Shown in pieces: positions 33,916 to 46,013 of a DNA stretch of 64,000 nt (the first letter of the stretch is position 1; each line of letters opens with the position of its first letter). The notes under the pieces are model-generated. The model ran no database searches. It had not been told where the DNA came from and was given only the letters and a program-made list of their open reading frames with translations. The position numbers and the translations under genes are program-made. The stretch is from contig OZ245040.1 of the NCBI GenBank assembly GCA_965224195.1, forward strand, positions 1,056,001 through 1,120,000, in the 5' to 3' direction. The DNA comes from Nitrosopumilus sp. (lineage in GTDB: Archaea > Thermoproteota > Nitrososphaeria > Nitrososphaerales > Nitrosopumilaceae).

Positions 33916-34240
33916 ATCATTTTTTTCCTTTTTGTTTGGTTTTTGCAGTTCATAATATTCTTCTTGATTTTATTATCCTTAATTGTGTATAATACACCAT
34001 GTTTCGTCCTATTTTCTAACGGTGTTTGTATCATAGGATGATTCACCTTTTTGGTTTCATAAATATTCCTAGTCAAAATTCCTGTGTTTTTGATCAATTC
34101 TGAGGTTGAAATAGAGTTTAGAATCTAATTTCTGATAAAAACCAATGACGGGATTTAGTCAAAAAGTTTCAAGCCTATTCTGAAACGATTGATTTTAGTT
34201 TATTCACAAAATCAAAATTATTTCTGTAGATGGTCTTTTT

Positions 34241-35330
34241 TTATTCTTTCACATAACTCTCTGTTTTTAGCTCTTTTCCTGATTCTAACCTAATCGTATA
34301 TGCACTTAGTTTACTTTCAAAAATTGCCAGTACTGGCTCTTTAGTCTGCTTGATAGTTATCACTATGCATTCTTTTTGATCCTTTTTCTCATTCTCTAAG
34401 GAAATTTGTTGAAGAATAACATAACTGGGATCATATTCTGTAAATTTGTTAATCATAGTTCTTAACGATTGCATTCTATCCTCTAAATCTTCAACACCTA
34501 CAATTTCTCTAGTTCTATCGGTAATGCCTATGATGATAATACCATCATTTGAATTGGCATAACTGACAATATGCTGTGCAAATTCAAATTGTTTGATGTT
34601 TTTTGCCCCTGCTCCTTTTATACTCCAAAAATCTAATGTTTTTTTAAAATCCCACAAATTGTTTTCTACTATGCTTTGTTTTCTAACATAATTGATCACT
34701 TTTTTAAAAATTATATGTCTAAAAATTTATTCTGCTCTTGAATTTTTTTAATATCCAAAATTATTAGATTTACCGAGTCTCTAATTTTATGACAATATTC
34801 TTCAAAATCATGCATGATTTCATTTTCAGCTCTTGTAAACAGATACTTTTTACCTATTACTGGATGGCCAAGAAACGTCTCAGTAATCGTGCAGCTGTTC
34901 CCAGCTGCATACAAAGCAGGTGTAGAAGAAGCAATCGCCAACAAGAAACGTCTCAGTAATCGTGCATCTGTTCCCAGCTTGTAAACAGATACTTTTTACT
35001 TATTACTGGATGGCTTTCAGGATCTAATGGATCAAAAGCATCTAAATGCAATTCATGATAAATTCTACCTACTTGGTAACCTCCATACATTACAAAACCT
35101 AATGCAATTTCAGCGTAATGCTTGATTGAAGATTCACTGTCCGCTATTATTCTGGCAGTGGTTGATGGAAATCTTTCAGAACGTCTACTTGTACCCCATC
35201 CTTTATATGAAAATAAAATTGTAGGCACATCTTCATCTTTTTGTTTTAACTATTCGGTATATTCTAATAATTCAGTAATTTCTTTGTCATTCTTATCTGC
35301 AAATTTTTTTATTTTTTGAATGATCTATCC
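34241..35330 (-). pseudogene. Schlafen/AlbA_2-domain protein, disrupted
   Basis: C-terminal WDFK...SYANSNDGIIIIGITD; ORF pieces 34241-34699, 34711-34944 and 34953-35228; in-frame stop near 35250; 5' end abuts an IS1595 remnant. Confidence 0.7.
34832..35014. repeat. A-B-X-B-A nested direct-repeat insertion (37/36/37/36/37 bp)
   Basis: A at 34832-34868 and 34978-35014 (1 mismatch); B at 34869-34904 and 34942-34977 (1 mismatch); X at 34905-34941. Confidence 0.92.
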
Positions 35331-35332
35331 AT

Positions 35333-35532
35333 TGATCACAGCAAAATGTTTGGAAAAGGAGATGTGTACATTAATGGGATTGAAGGTTTTTAGAGTTTTG
35401 TCAAACAGAACATGGCAAAGCATCATGGGGTGAATCCGGGAAAGTTCTTGTTGTACATCAAGGAGATGGAATGCAGATACAACAGTAGAGATGTAGATAC
35501 TTTCTCATTATTGCTTGATTATTGCCTTGGTG
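35333..35532 (+). mobile_element. IS1595-family transposase C-terminal remnant
   Basis: Translates as DHSK..GDVYINGIEGF.SFVK..HHGV....LYIKEMECRYN. Confidence 0.7.
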
Positions 35533-35552
35533 ATGAATAATTGAGTCACCCA

Positions 35553-35780
35553 TTATTTTTTGTCGCATTGTTTGTAAATTGGCTCAAAGAATGGTAACGG
35601 CAAATGTATGACATTAAGATATTTAATTATTTGATCATGTCTCAAGATATTTTGTTTTTTGATTGTGACTTTATTCATTATAGAATGATCAAAATACAAA
35701 AAACCAGAAGATGTCGTTATAATTTGCACATATCCTAAAACTCTCAACACTCTGACAAAATGATGCCAGCCTATTTTCAG
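35553..35780 (-). CDS. Possible divergent HicA-like toxin
   Basis: WHHFVRVLRVLGY...YFDH...VTI pattern, directly downstream of a HicB-like ORF. Confidence 0.35.
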   Translation of the reverse strand: MKIGWHHFVRVLRVLGYVQIITTSSGFLYFDHSIMNKVTIKKQNILRHDQIIKYLNVIHLPLPFFEPIYKQCDKK

Positions 35781-35980
35781 ATAAACACCACCTTGTGCAT
35801 AATATCTTTTGTAAAAAATTCGGATTTGGATTCTGGAAAGGCCTCTACATATCCGGCAATAATTTTATCCAATTCTGATTTTATCTCCTGTTTGTTTTTT
35901 CCAACAACAATTATCTCTGGTTTGTCGTAGCATTGAGCTAGCAATCCCTGCTCACTTTTTACCAGTTTTACTTGCAAATT
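35777..35980 (-). CDS. HicB-like antitoxin domain (start uncertain)
   Basis: VKSEQGLLAQCYDKPEIIVVGKNKQEIKSEL resembles the HicB fold pattern. Confidence 0.45.
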   Translation of the reverse strand, partial: NLQVKLVKSEQGLLAQCYDKPEIIVVGKNKQEIKSELDKIIAGYVEAFPESKSEFFTKDIMHKVVFI

Positions 35981-36449
35981 ACCCAAGATATAGGTATAAT
36001 AAATATGATATATATAAAATGTTATTATCCGGATTGATGCTGTCCTGCATACCACACTCCTTGTATCTGAGGATTTTGGAATGTGCAAGCATTACTTTTA
36101 CTTCTTTTGTAGTATATGCTCGCAAGCTAGGTGTCTTTTGCCTCTGTGGTAACATCTTGTAGATTATTTCCCAATTAAGATGAACTCGATTCATCACAAA
36201 GAAGTGTTTTATTCCTCCAAGCTTTGACGGTATGGAGTTAGGGTTTGCAGTCTGCCTCAAATACAGAACATAGTTTTCAAGCATTATCTGTAGATCATTG
36301 ATGAAAATTTCCAATAACTTCTTTTCATTAAATAATCCTGTGAATTTTCTGAATTGAGTAAGGTTTGATGTATAATTCTTTTTGGTATGCTTTGACTTGA
36401 TTGATTCTTCAAACAAGATCATGCTTCTTTGTTTTGTAAGCAATGTCAA
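35979..36449 (-). pseudogene. Truncated tyrosine recombinase (N-terminal half), paralog of 46288-47217
   Basis: LLTKQRS..LFEESIKSK.TKKNYT...NPNSIPSK...SLRAYTTKEVK shared; catalytic domain missing. Confidence 0.85.
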
Positions 36450-36677: not shown

Positions 36678-36889
36678 TATTGTTTGATAATAAGCATGTT
36701 AAATTCAGTTAAATTTCCACTCTCTTCGGCTGCAAGCTCTACTGCTTCCTTTATATTTTCCATCATATCTCCGAATGTATCGCTTTCTGATACTGCATGT
36801 AGTTCGTCACATCTGCCAACAAATCCGCCATCTTCAAGATCCTTGGTTATTACTACTGTGTAGGTCTTTTTTTGTAGGGTTGTACTCGT
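36677..36889 (-). pseudogene. HicB antitoxin paralog with ACG in place of the start codon
   Basis: TSTTLQKKTYTVVITKDLEDGGFVGRCDELHA...ENIKEAVELA matches the HicB at 47546-47752. Confidence 0.8.
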
Positions 36890-38175
36890 AACGTAGATAG
36901 TCTCAAAAGCGTTAAAAATATTGCTAGTCTTATGCGTATTTTTGTAAGTAAAAAGAGATTATTGATTGCATCAACTCCTGACAGGATTGACGCAATCTTT
37001 TGCTGTTCCTTAATGTTTTTTGTATATGGTAGTTTTGTATTGGCAATTTCATCTTGATTTATTGCATCATAAGTAGTTCCTTGTGAATAAACTAAAAATC
37101 TTTTTTTACTGTGATTGACAAGGTAGTAACAATATAATAGATCGCATTCTATTGGATTTAACGCTGCTACTCCTCTACCTAAGCAACATTTCTTTCTTGT
37201 TAAGTTAATTTCTCCAACAGGAGCCCTTACAGAAAATAGAATCGAATTATCATTTGTAGTTTTTTTAGGATCAGTACACCAAATCATTGGATTTGGATAT
37301 GTTGCTCCAAAATCTGTTACTCCTTGATAGAATGGCAATCCTTTTTCTTCTTTATTATAACTTTCAGATGGTGGAGATTGACCCATTGTAATTTGTAGTA
37401 TCTTTGCAGTAGGTTTGATCTCCCATTCTTCTGGAATCTCATCATATTTTCCAAATAATCCCCTTACCCTCTTGAATTTTTTATGCCCTATCCCCCTGGT
37501 CAGAAGCTCCTGCATTAGACCTTTCTTCAATAGCTCAGCTTTGTTTACAACTTCTTGTGTACATTCAATTAATGCGTCAACTCTAGAGAGGATTGACGCA
37601 ATCTTTTGCTGTTCATGAATTAGAGGCAAGAGAATCAAAATTTGTTTTAGGTTTTTTTTGGATAGTCCATAAACTGAAACTCCTGTAACTCTTGCAATAA
37701 TTTGTTTCGTGACAAAATTCATTGATGTCAGATATGCTCGAAAATCAACCGAAGTATTCCCTTTTACATCTCGGATTGCAATCGTATGTAACCCTGAGAC
37801 TAGTTTCTTTCCATCAACATTTTTCAACAATATGCTTGTGCCAGAACCTTCATGATCCTCTGATGCATCTGCTATGACAAGGTCTCCTTCTTTTAACAAC
37901 GAGATATTTTTTACTTTAATTTTATCAATGAAGGGAATTTCTTCATTTTTGCAATCAAGAAAAATTTTCCATTTTGTATGCATGTCTCCATAATGGATAT
38001 AGTTCACATCACCTTTGTCTTCAAGATCGTTACGTGAGTTTGTAGCTGTGGAAAGGAATTCAAACACTTCCTCAAATGTTTTGGTCTTCCAATCTTCAGG
38101 AATCTCTATCTCTTTTCCAAACAACCATTTAACAAGCTTGTATCCTTTTTGCGGTGGCGTGCAACCATCCTTCAA
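36853..38175 (-). CDS. hsdS: Type I RM specificity subunit, two TRDs but lacking the C-terminal conserved helix (silent allele)
   Basis: EIPEDW/EIPEEW and two EQQKIASILS; HsdS homology ends at ...SGVDA (36967). Confidence 0.88.
   Translation of the reverse strand: MKDGCTPPQKGYKLVKWLFGKEIEIPEDWKTKTFEEVFEFLSTATNSRNDLEDKGDVNYIHYGDMHTKWKIFLDCKNEEIPFIDKIKVKNISLLKEGDLVIADASEDHEGSGTSILLKNVDGKKLVSGLHTIAIRDVKGNTSVDFRAYLTSMNFVTKQIIARVTGVSVYGLSKKNLKQILILLPLIHEQQKIASILSRVDALIECTQEVVNKAELLKKGLMQELLTRGIGHKKFKRVRGLFGKYDEIPEEWEIKPTAKILQITMGQSPPSESYNKEEKGLPFYQGVTDFGATYPNPMIWCTDPKKTTNDNSILFSVRAPVGEINLTRKKCCLGRGVAALNPIECDLLYCYYLVNHSKKRFLVYSQGTTYDAINQDEIANTKLPYTKNIKEQQKIASILSGVDAINNLFLLTKIRIRLAIFLTLLRLSTLRVQPYKKRPTQ
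36967..37008 (-). repeat. 42-bp terminal hsdS repeat (inverted to 45870-45911, direct to 47827-47869)
   Basis: gaacagcaaaagattgcgtcaatcctgtcaggagttgaYgca. Confidence 0.92.
37448..37614 (-). repeat. 167-bp inverted repeat identical to 45234-45400
   Basis: Base-by-base comparison of the two hsdS central regions. Confidence 0.93.
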
Positions 38176-44765: not shown

Positions 44766-46013
44766 GTGAGATGTCGCTTGATAATGAAAAAACCAAAAAA
44801 AGGTTGCAAACTAGTCAAGGGATTATTTGGAAAGGAGATCGAGATTCCAGAAGAATGGAAAGTTGAAAAATTCAATGATAGAATTAAACTAGAATATGGC
44901 TCAAGTTTAACAGCAGAACAACGAGATAATGCAGGTAATCCAGTATATGATTCAGGTGGAATTATTGGATTTCATTCTAAACCTATTGTGAATAATATAG
45001 GAATTGTTGTAGCAAGAAAAGGTTCTATTGGAAATATTTTCTATGAAAAACAAGATTTCTTTCCAATAGATACTGTATATTATATTACAAAAAATGAAAC
45101 GACATTCAATTTACTTTTTCTTTTTTATTACCTAACAAATATGAAATTAGAAAATCTTGCAATAGTTACCTCTAAACCTGGAATTAGCAGAAATGAAATT
45201 TACTCACTTAAAATAATATTTCCTCTACTTCCCGAACAGCAAAAGATTGCGTCAATCCTCTCTAGAGTTGACGCATTAATTGAATGTACACAAGAAGTTG
45301 TAAACAAAGCTGAGCTATTGAAGAAAGGTCTAATGCAGGAGCTTCTGACCAGGGGGATAGGGCATAAAAAATTCAAGAGGGTAAGGGGATTATTTGGAAA
45401 GGAGATCGAGATTCCAGAAGAATGGGAGATTAGAAAGTTAGATGGAATAGGAGAGTTAATTGGTGGTGGCACACCTGATTCTACAAATCTAGAGTATTGG
45501 AATGGAGAAATATTATGGGCAGTTCCCACAGATATTACAAAATTACAAACTAATCTGATTGAAAATACTGAAAGAAAGATTACAAAAAAAGGATTGGATA
45601 ACAGTTCTGCTAAATTATTACCTATCGGTACAGTTTTGATTACTTCTAGAGCTACCATTGGTAAATGTGCAATAACTACAAAATCCATTACAACCAATCA
45701 GGGATTTCAGAATATTATCTGTAATAAAGATCAGAGTAATTTATTCATATTTTATGTAATGAAACATAATCAAAATGTATTAGTGAGATTATCTTATGGA
45801 ACAACATTTTTAGAAATCAGCAAAAAAGATATGCGGAAAATGCTAGTATGTTTGCCGTATTCTAGTTACGAACAGCAAAAGATTGCGTCAATCCTGTCAG
45901 GAGTTGACGCATACATACAGAAGAACCAAGAATACAAGGAAAAGTTGGAGAGGCTTAAAAAAGGCCTTATGCAAAAACTGCTTACAGGTCAGATCCGTGT
46001 AAAAATCAAATAA
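44766..46013 (+). CDS. hsdS: Type I RM specificity subunit, complete allele
   Basis: Two TRDs, both conserved helices, ends LKKGLMQKLLTGQIRV. Confidence 0.93.
   Translation: MRCRLIMKKPKKGCKLVKGLFGKEIEIPEEWKVEKFNDRIKLEYGSSLTAEQRDNAGNPVYDSGGIIGFHSKPIVNNIGIVVARKGSIGNIFYEKQDFFPIDTVYYITKNETTFNLLFLFYYLTNMKLENLAIVTSKPGISRNEIYSLKIIFPLLPEQQKIASILSRVDALIECTQEVVNKAELLKKGLMQELLTRGIGHKKFKRVRGLFGKEIEIPEEWEIRKLDGIGELIGGGTPDSTNLEYWNGEILWAVPTDITKLQTNLIENTERKITKKGLDNSSAKLLPIGTVLITSRATIGKCAITTKSITTNQGFQNIICNKDQSNLFIFYVMKHNQNVLVRLSYGTTFLEISKKDMRKMLVCLPYSSYEQQKIASILSGVDAYIQKNQEYKEKLERLKKGLMQKLLTGQIRVKIK
44819..45425 (+). repeat. 40-bp direct repeat in front of each TRD (44819-44858 and 45386-45425)
   Basis: gggattatttggaaaggagatcgagattccagaagaatgg occurs twice. 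Confidence 0.9.

Follow-up and report, generated by a model that had tools for sequence, protein, structure and literature searches.

In the chromosome of an ammonia-oxidising archaeon we have identified a nested pair of direct repeats which very probably represents the scars of two successive off-target spacer integrations, made by the organism's own CRISPR adaptation machinery. The structure occupies positions 34832-35014 of the window, that is, the whole stretch of 64,000 nucleotides of Nitrosopumilus sp. analysed here (contig OZ245040.1, C1:1056001-1120000 of a genome of 2,067,682 bp in two contigs with a G+C content (GC) of 33.6%, labelled G000). It places 146 bp of additional DNA within a gene for a Schlafen/AlbA_2 protein. 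The assignment of the organism to the ammonia oxidisers follows from the presence of archaeal amoA in the genome. Positions are those of the window unless they carry the prefix C1.

The segments follow one another on the plus strand in the order A1-B1-X-B2-A2, with lengths of 37/36/37/36/37 bp and one mismatch within each repeat pair. A1 (34832..34868) and A2 (34978..35014), which differ by C/T, are the two copies of a 37-bp segment of the host gene, probably duplicated in the outer, first event; the left edge of A1 bears the motif gct|CTTGTAA, in which the bar marks the edge of the duplication. B1 (34869..34904) and B2 (34942..34977), with a G/T difference, are the two copies of the outer insert of 36 bp (36-38), which would later have become the duplicated target of the inner event, and X (34905..34941) is the unique insert of 37 bp (35-37) of that inner, presumably second integration. 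The border between B and X is ambiguous by 2 nt (36/37 or 38/35) because X and A both begin with CT, and the first bases of A2, (CT)TGTAAAC, sit immediately past the far border of the inner duplication. A repeat search recovered the A pair as 37 nt at a spacing of 146 and the B pair as 38 nt at a spacing of 73, each with 97% identity; both layers have a period of 73 and each adds 73 bp. With up to 3 mismatches allowed, B is matched 2 times in the window and 0 times in 100 shuffles, and a search of the 2.07-Mb genome that tolerated up to 8 substitutions gave no further copies of A, B or X. By direct count the GC of B is 18/36 and that of X 17/37, compared with 0.26-0.31 in the flanks. Both the geometry and the raised GC had been described in the original prediction, which was made from the letters of the window and an open reading frame (ORF) list, and they are borne out by these counts and searches.

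The structure was checked in the contigs of four public runs (X1-X4) belonging to three studies. The X1 contig, which may derive from the source sample itself, spans 34300-35323 with 0 differences, and the X2 contig covers 34640-35290 with 2 single-nucleotide polymorphisms and no gap; the contigs of X3 (second study, 34946-35130) and X4 (third study, 34793-34943) span further parts, and no joints were found across A-B-X-B-A in the contigs of the four runs. Thus the structure is real and not an assembly artefact, as the mismatches within the repeat pairs had already been taken to indicate. We give next to no credence to the broader alternative that it arose by template switching or tandem duplication or in the assembly. 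Direct repeats can arise by slippage and one plus-strand frame spans X and B2 (ORF 34814-34984), the feature for which a contiguous X+B coding sequence elsewhere had been envisaged; however, B and X have no template in the genome and a contiguous X+B template was found nowhere by exact-match or BLAST searches, while the long-period repeats that can be attributed to slippage all have periods that are multiples of 3 and lie within protein repeats. The presence of the junctions in contigs of three studies and the mismatch in each pair argue against the artefact. In the genome the period-146 structure is a single case, no A-X-A-B-A form is present, and a genome search revealed no other nested or multi-spacer stray units, the remaining long-period or multi-copy repeats being protein repeats with periods in multiples of 3. 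Many large genes contain tandem repeats of 153/156 nt (51-52 amino acids) and others have units of 60, 75 or 141 nt (for example at C1:530417-530767, 801404-810971, 1413746-1418156, 1607780-1611118 and 2056673-2058576), and such genes account for most of the long-period direct repeats of the genome.

The interrupted gene lies on the minus strand at 34178..35324 and would encode a protein of about 440 amino acids with a C-terminal Schlafen/AlbA_2 domain, as judged from Pfam, phmmer and tblastn. Pfam AlbA_2 was found on the minus-strand ORF 34241-34699, directly downstream of the two ORFs split by the insertion, which have no Pfam match of their own. An initial homologous-protein search with the 91-residue fragment returned only the fragment itself, and the homologues came from an exhaustive phmmer search, which gave the proteins P0003-P0007 of 391-445 amino acids; in 4 of these 5 AlbA_2 is C-terminal, in agreement with the family first proposed for the gene. 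P0003 (444 amino acids) was aligned by tblastn in three pieces, each in a frame of its own: residues 106-223 over 35324-34971, 213-258 over 34857-34720 and 258-440 over 34726-34178. Its sequence across the junction is '...KEYLLTRAENEI...', where the window has '...KKYLFT' in A2 and 'KKYLFTRAENEI' from A1 onward. This indicates that A is native and single-copy in the intact gene and that B and X are foreign. Without the 146 bp, ORFs 34953-35228 and 34711-34944 share a single frame, as predicted, and P0003 provides the uninterrupted homologue that had been asked for. The insertion interrupts the reading frame, but the proposal that it knocked out the gene is overstated, because four other lesions are present: the 5' end is truncated at 35324, stops occur in frame at 35250-35252 and prematurely at 34241-34243, and the frame shifts near 34720-34726. 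The gene is a decayed pseudogene, and any of its lesions, the insertion included, may have come first. No empty allele of this locus was seen at the DNA level among relatives or in the run contigs.

There are no cas genes in the window, as had been noted, and three cas1 open frames without stops are present elsewhere in the genome, each accompanied by cas2 and cas4 and each beside a large array. Array 1 (C1:707204-713740) contains 90 identical repeats of 36 nt with a spacer mode of 36-37 and a modal period of 72-73; array 2 (C1:941989-946529) has 69 identical repeats of 30 nt, spacers of the same mode and a modal period of 66-67; and array 3 (C1:1457180-1466783) has 132 identical repeats of 37 nt, a spacer mode of 35-36 and a modal period of 72-73. 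Typing of the modules with NCBIfam assigned that of array 1 to type I-G (Cas4g/Cas1g fusion, Cas2, Csb2, Cas3g and Csb1) and that of array 3 to an I-B-like type (Cas7, Cas5, Cas3, Cas1, Cas2 and Cas4), and found Cas4, Cas1b and Cas2 beside array 2. Arrays 1 and 3 natively have the period of 73 that is found in the nested unit, and the lengths of its duplications (37 bp for A and 36-38 bp for B) match the resident repeats of 36 and 37 nt. One 'spacer' of array 1 (C1:710968-711004) is a related I-G repeat in inverted orientation, 88% identical over 34 nt to the array repeat of a relative (G055); it was either taken from another, possibly element-borne, CRISPR array or is a flipped repeat.

The nested unit is part of a pattern that extends over the whole chromosome. 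A scan over periods of 40-110 for isolated two-copy direct repeats of at least 28 nt that had no more than 2 mismatches and were free of internal periodicity retrieved 58 clean pairs: 36 have a period of 70-76, 11 a period of 60, which corresponds to a protein repeat, and the other 11 are spread over nine further periods (66-108) with one or two pairs at each. Outside 70-76 there is thus almost no background except for the protein repeat at 60. Among these 36, a set of 34 stray units, each a duplicated host segment around a short insert, has duplications of 34-39 bp (mean 36.85 bp, standard deviation (SD) 1.17) and inserts of 33-40 bp (mean 35.91 bp, SD 1.48), with a mean period of 72.76 bp (SD 1.42). 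Their two copies are identical in 23 units and differ once in 8 and twice in 3. Two extra units, at C1:912673 and 1228750, have duplications of exactly 30 bp with inserts of 36 and 39 bp, and these duplications fit the ruler of array 2 with its 30-nt repeat. Under uniform criteria (duplication 28-40 bp, insert 30-42 bp) the genome holds 36 units, or 17.5 per Mb, and the inferred events number 37 when the outer duplication of A is counted. The duplicated host sequence and the insert differ in every unit. Units of period 64-78 with a duplication above 39 bp or an insert below 33 bp had been set aside before counting (duplication/insert: C1:798295, 43/32; 1619794, 42/33; 1129506, 53/25; 1219689, 45/24; 1911472, 37/29). 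The first two may be of the same kind with ambiguous borders, and that at 798295 has a contiguous paralogue at 805-918 of the window; the other three look like low-complexity or protein repeats.

Several lines of evidence demonstrate that the stray units are insertions and that the duplicated segment is single in the empty site. In 10 of the 34 units the sequence minus one period is contiguous in paralogues within the genome (98.7% identity over 317 bp for C1:1363425, 99.6% for 1892823, 96% for 1692970 and 96.5% for 1973078), and in one unit, located within a 48-nt tandem repeat, the deletion of 72 nt restores the periodicity. The SDR gene at C1:173581 aligns as two pieces, query 1-~637 and ~675-1201, in 21 of 30 genomes of the genus; these alignments leave out precisely the 37-nt insert, with an overlap of 32-36 bp in the subject. 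Similarly, 25 of the 30 genomes align in two pieces around the insert in the MFS gene at C1:682088, with overlaps of about 32-37 bp over both loci, and neither insert is present in any of the 30 relatives. For the nested unit the empty site is seen at the protein level through P0003.

The genes struck include, besides the SDR gene, an MCM-like helicase, many ORFans, the MFS transporter, which is now in two pieces, and an IS4/5 transposase that is broken between its domains. In-frame strikes were found in a DsbA-like protein and a cupredoxin protein, and the period modulo 3 is distributed as 15/11/10 units for the residues 1/0/2, so that there is no preference for in-frame events. The 36 units are clustered along the chromosome, 11 of the 35 gaps between neighbours being shorter than 10 kb where 5.6 are expected (P=0.008), and for 10 of the 36 a CRISPR array is no more than 50 kb away; five of these, at C1:898236-912768, are found upstream of array 2. 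The clustering could reflect dispensable islands or local activity of the integrase.

Two models had been put forward for the nested structure: the excision of a two-unit circle, with B as repeat and A and X as spacers, from an unknown CRISPR array and its recombination into its own protospacer A, or two nested off-target integrations of the Cas1 type. The circle formally yields the order A-B-X-B-A and its sizes are CRISPR-like. Nevertheless, B occurs in no array of the genome and is unlike all three resident repeats, it has no exact match in viral, metagenome and genome collections, and no BLAST match was found in 62 genomes of the genus or in a phage collection. Furthermore, at least 34 simple A-B-A loci, each with its own duplicated host sequence, cannot be produced by a circle, and the model makes the unnecessary assumption that a self-targeting spacer underwent homologous recombination over 37 bp. 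We thus regard the excised circle as highly improbable, and the related idea of B as a circularly permuted repeat found no support. By contrast, nested integration is strongly backed by the three CRISPR-Cas loci, the 36 footprints (units of the kind for which a genome scan had been suggested), the repeat-end motif and the spacer-like inserts described below. Other kinds of element were considered and rejected. A transposon, insertion sequence or miniature inverted-repeat transposable element does not fit inserts that are all different and single-copy, with no inverted repeats at the unit borders in the repeat search and duplications that, at 34-39 bp, equal the inserts in length. A casposon encodes a casposase, measures kilobases, ends in terminal inverted repeats and duplicates about 14-15 bp of its target, dimensions that differ from the inserts and duplications of 36-37 bp found here. 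Finally, a genuine mini-array with B as its repeat is not supported, since B is confined to two copies in the genome and had no match in the collections searched, and the window contains no Rfam family at gathering score.

The borders of the duplications were examined by a one-occurrence-per-site motif search in both orientations, with shifts of -3 to +3 at the duplication edge, over 35 sites including A and B. The search returned the edge motif [AG][CG]T|G[TC]T[GAC][AC]AA with a log-likelihood ratio of 71.8, compared with 32.6 (SD 5.3, maximum 44.9) in 40 random sets, and a fixed 7-mer test of the target edges gave P=0.006. An expectation-maximisation over orientation alone mixed the signals of both borders, and the shifted search was relied on. 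The part of the motif within the duplication, with the core G-Y-T-N-[AC]-A-A, resembles GCTTCAA of array 1 and GTTTCAA of the reverse complement of array 3, which are the leader-distal ends of the 36- and 37-nt repeats (in the sense of the CRISPR RNA, ATTGAAGC and ATTGAAAC). Although both repeats have T at position 4 of the duplicated part, the stray sites almost never do. A fits the motif with 7.5 bits, a value reached by a fraction of 0.0016 of genome positions, and B (ggc|CAAGAAA), in the same orientation as A, with 5.6 bits, reached by 0.0054; the median fraction over the events is 0.0035, and these percentiles are optimistic, as the matrix was trained on the scored sites themselves, A and B included. 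Applied to 19 units of three other species, the matrix trained on this genome gave a median of 2.99 bits against 1.28 for random positions (p=8.6e-5). At the far border the 35 sites have a weak consensus G|nGTAA, in which column +5 is A in 21/35; its information content of 0.32 exceeds the 99th percentile of 0.24, and it is the sole column of 24 to do so. This consensus matches the leader-proximal flank TGTAAC of array 3, and the far flank of B is TGTAAAC.

The inserts are comparable to spacers in composition. Their GC of 40.4% is close to the 40.4-42.3% of array spacers (Mann-Whitney p=0.71, arrays 1 and 3) and differs from the 33.7% of random genomic 36-mers (p=6e-5); the composition of the ends is weakly similar in inserts and array spacers, the first base being T-rich in both. 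No two of the 34 inserts are alike. Eight of them are self-derived, with copies elsewhere on the chromosome over 28-39 nt at 92-100% identity, and the homology ends exactly at the edges of the insert. Of the array spacers, 0/288 have a full-length match outside the arrays, the best being an 18-nt partial match. Self inserts in stray units and none in arrays are expected if a self spacer is lethal in an expressed array and harmless at a silent stray site.

The association with cas1 was explored in relatives of the genus, of which 14 of the 46 sampled contain cas1. The scans were done on partial genomes and units were counted under the uniform criteria given above. The cas1-bearing genomes G009, G014 and G055 gave 10, 6 and 3 units in 396 kb each, although one of the three units of G055 may be a two-repeat piece with a true I-G repeat; the cas1 matches of G055 comprise only the I-G fusion, yet units are present. 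Of the genomes in which cas1 was not found, G010 gave 1 unit in 792 kb (31/39, AT-rich, palindromic and dubious) and G007 1 clean unit (38/34) in 396 kb; 12 of 13 'isolated' repeats of G007 belong to one 75-nt protein tandem repeat and were left out of the count. The comparison is thus 19 units against 2 in 1.19 Mb each, with p ~1e-4 by our own arithmetic if units are equally likely in both. Two of the G009 units, at 144491 and 200775 of the sample (stitched C1:1600001-1996200), have paralogous targets (GCTGCAAAAGG...) with different inserts in opposite orientation, and this pair is an independent recurrence at one motif-bearing sequence.

In the canonical reaction Cas1-Cas2 carries out two transesterifications on opposite strands, one repeat length apart, and the filling of the gaps duplicates the segment between them. 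We propose that in the first event a Cas1-Cas2 complex put the 36-bp prespacer B into the AlbA_2 gene, the enzyme being either the type I-G Cas4/Cas1-Cas2 (array with 36-nt repeats) or the I-B-like Cas1-Cas2-Cas4 (array with 37-nt repeats), at a site whose edge is similar to the leader-distal end of a native repeat. Attacks staggered by 37 bp and the repair of the resulting gaps would have duplicated A and generated A-B-A, a gain of 73 bp. In the second event X would have been integrated with B serving as a pseudo-repeat, leading to A-B-X-B-A and again to a gain of 73 bp.

A number of observations weigh against this proposal. The role of Cas1-Cas2 as maker of the units is something we infer from the patterns above rather than from direct proof, and so are the acting module, the order of B before X and the independence or coupling of the second hit. 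The fit of B to the motif is only moderate, since about 0.5% of positions over 14 registers amounts to about 7% by chance. Neither an A-B-A intermediate nor an empty allele was seen in the contigs of the four runs, and contigs drop rare variants. No consistent protospacer-adjacent motif (PAM) or common triplet was apparent by eye in the motif-oriented flanks of the 8 self protospacers, though all three modules contain Cas4. The sources of B and X were not found in exact-match scans of viral, metagenome and genome contigs, which miss diverged protospacers; in addition, BLAST of B-X-B gave only chance-level matches of 16-28 nt in the 62 genus genomes and nothing in the phage collection. The comparison by cas1 comprises five related genomes, three with and two without cas1, which were partly sampled. 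The clean unit of G007 (1 mismatch, at 260163 of stitched C1:400001-796200) lies in a genome where cas1 was not found; it could be left over from a lost CRISPR-Cas system, have been made by an element-borne integrase, or speak against the link with cas1. Lastly, in the 34 units the lengths of duplication and insert are correlated with r=-0.45, which a compensating process would also give; we attribute the negative correlation to border ambiguity.

These last two points, together with the 8 of 34 inserts that are self-derived, could also be accommodated by a process independent of CRISPR, in which about 72 nt are added as a short copy of the cell's own DNA, often a hairpin, with a compensating duplication of the target. 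Such a process appears very unlikely to us. The inserts are not hairpins, with a mean hairpin z of -0.02 and only 2/34 below -2, and a sample of 60 spacers from the 220 of arrays 1 and 3 behaves like the inserts in this test. Furthermore, 26 of the 34 inserts have no source in the genome, and their GC of 41.5% is like that of array spacers. Where protospacers fix the borders exactly, the duplications are 34-37 bp and the inserts 34-39 bp, and no compensation is seen. The process would in addition leave aside the match of the target motif to the resident repeat ends, the coexistence of 30-bp duplications with an array of 30-nt repeats and the roughly 10-fold lower density in the cas1-less samples. 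The action of the organism's own Cas1-Cas2 remains the explanation that we favour.

A further point against the simplest form of our proposal is that the inner duplication is the whole of B. About 22,000 strand-positions score as well as the B site, and with about 36 events and about 36 earlier inserts we estimate some 1e-3 nestings in register per such genome if hits were independent; the figure is a rough one, and it renders simple independence doubtful. In view of this coincidence we retain as a real but lesser possibility that the same enzymes acted in a coupled process and not in two independent hits. A second Cas1-Cas2-prespacer complex may have attacked the borders of B in the gapped intermediate, where B is double-stranded and flanked by single-stranded gaps of A, or the integrase may have docked on the motif of A2, or on the leader-like TGTAA at B|A2, and measured 36-37 bp on the wrong side. 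Coupling is suggested by the exact start of the inner duplication at the A1|B junction and its end at, or 2 nt past, B|A2, by the equal length of spacer (36 bp) and ruler (36-37 bp), by the solitary occurrence of the period-146 structure with no A-X-A-B-A counterpart, and by the start of A2, which is motif-like and resembles both the array 3 leader flank and the weak far-border consensus. The equal mismatch counts (1 and 1) also fit similar ages of the two pairs. On the other hand, there is a single example, B itself fits the motif moderately well in the correct register, so that an ordinary second hit may have occurred, and the far-border signal consists of one column of 24.

Nivala, Shipman and Church reportedly described (Nat Microbiol, 2018) non-canonical spacer integration by the type I-E system of E. 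coli, which has a 28-bp repeat. Off-target 'neo-CRISPR' integration was observed in E. coli over-producing Cas1-Cas2 and supplied with oligonucleotides (cited in PMC6698737, bioRxiv 10.1101/148544 and PMC7054753), and it has been put forward that such events may generate CRISPR loci (PMC6698737); among these three sources the natural evidence is called 'circumstantial' and limited to two other species. The units of Nitrosopumilus resemble neo-CRISPR loci in the spacer-sized insert, the repeat-length duplication of non-CRISPR DNA, the repeat-like targets and the chromosomal location outside arrays. They differ in being natural events in an archaeon with I-G and I-B-like modules, in their number of 36 in one genome, in their recurrence across cas1-bearing species of the genus, in the 8/34 self-derived inserts and in the one nested unit. 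In vitro, Cas1-Cas2 of Pyrococcus furiosus integrates at non-CRISPR sites with repeat-like features, and off-target sites have been argued to reveal context-independent recognition elements (PMC6698737). That system shares with ours an archaeal integrase and non-CRISPR sites with sequence features of the repeat, whereas it was studied on a plasmid in vitro with 30-nt repeats, and here we observe chromosomal scars with a motif of the leader-distal end and a weak signal at the other border.

Compared with canonical adaptation by Cas4-containing I-G and I-B systems, the predicted enzymes, the repeat-length ruler, the spacer length and the gap repair would be the same (PMC10274657, PMC6547450). 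Canonical adaptation is leader-directed, polarised and PAM-selected, while the stray units are leaderless, have no consistent PAM at the 8 self protospacers and disrupt genes. Mini-CRISPR arrays and solitary repeat units borne by viruses and mobile genetic elements likewise consist of short repeat-spacer-repeat structures away from cas genes (PMC6858448), but their repeat matches a host array, and the 'repeat' of each stray unit is a piece of the interrupted host sequence. With casposons, which are known in this archaeal group (PMC8464041, PMC6563490), the units would share a Cas1-family integrase and a target-site duplication, and they differ in their inserts of 33-40 bp, all different, and duplications of 34-39 bp. 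The available passages of PMC6563490, on thaumarchaeal mobile elements, mention arrays and contain no stray units. The literature searched yielded no published account of scars like these, either from ammonia-oxidising archaea or for type I-G. In our judgement the kind of event is known from E. coli experiments, and its natural scale and the nesting are new.

The surroundings of the nested unit contain further features. The AlbA_2 locus (C1:1090200-1091600) is held at the DNA level by none of the 40 relatives searched, which match only a flanking repeat element and about 240 bp on the 3' side (G014), and is accessory DNA. This repeated element of about 280 bp (35323..35600, no strand assigned) adjoins the pseudogene where its 5' end is truncated. 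The copy at C1:1973481-1973758 shares 97% identity with it, at least 7 others in the genome share 80-84%, and the relatives G015 and G009 have further copies. Beside it are weak phage-integrase SAM-like ORF fragments (35979-36449). The minus-strand segment 35748..36091 (C1:1091748-1092091) is the empty-site paralogue of the stray unit at C1:1973078-1973186, 96.5% identical and contiguous across the junction. A Methylase_S domain identifies ORF 36853-38175 as hsdS, a type I restriction specificity gene, and within it the minus-strand segment 37513..37550 is the self protospacer of the insert at C1:911485, exact over 38/38. The same source sequence is present on the plus strand at 45298..45335, as the two hsdS genes (36853-38175 and at about 45298) have this one identical 38-nt segment in common. 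Taken together with the AlbA_2 pseudogene and the fragments of integrase, these hsdS genes give the region the look of a defence or mobile island. The second contig, C2, of 7,434 bp and 31.2% GC, may represent a plasmid or a virus, or else a piece that was left unplaced.

We read these results as indicating that the enzyme of CRISPR memory often misses the array in nature. Off-target integration has been known chiefly from E. coli over-expressing Cas1-Cas2 and from experiments in vitro. This genome with at least three related species now offers natural events by the dozen, with borders resolved to the base, that bear on its natural frequency, its cost to the host and the possibility that it seeds new arrays. 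These give the intrinsic, leader-free target preference of I-G or I-B-type integrases, a sample of prespacers unfiltered by interference (8/34 self, against 0/288 array spacers with a full-length self match) and a list of genes that the memory enzyme of the immune system has itself broken. In this data set the nested unit offers a first indication that stray units can be struck a second time, as any model of de novo array birth requires; the second hit used the spacer as 'repeat' and not the duplicated host segment, which current models do not predict. For annotation, 73-bp insertions with duplications of 36-37 bp in CRISPR-bearing archaea are to be read as integrase scars rather than as mini-arrays or unexplained frameshifts. 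More tentatively, as one possibility among others and not the likeliest, the Cas4-containing modules of the genus (I-G and/or I-B-like) may be largely leader-independent, leaving about 8-25 scars per Mb under the sole guidance of a repeat-end-like motif of 7-10 nt, with a fresh spacer or its gapped intermediate a preferred target by virtue of its ruler length. If so, off-target integration would be a real mutational force that breaks SDR, MFS, transposase and defence genes, the scars would form an unselected record of what Cas1-Cas2 samples, about a quarter of it self DNA, and the coupled 'integration into the integration' would be a possible first step in the building of an array from nothing.

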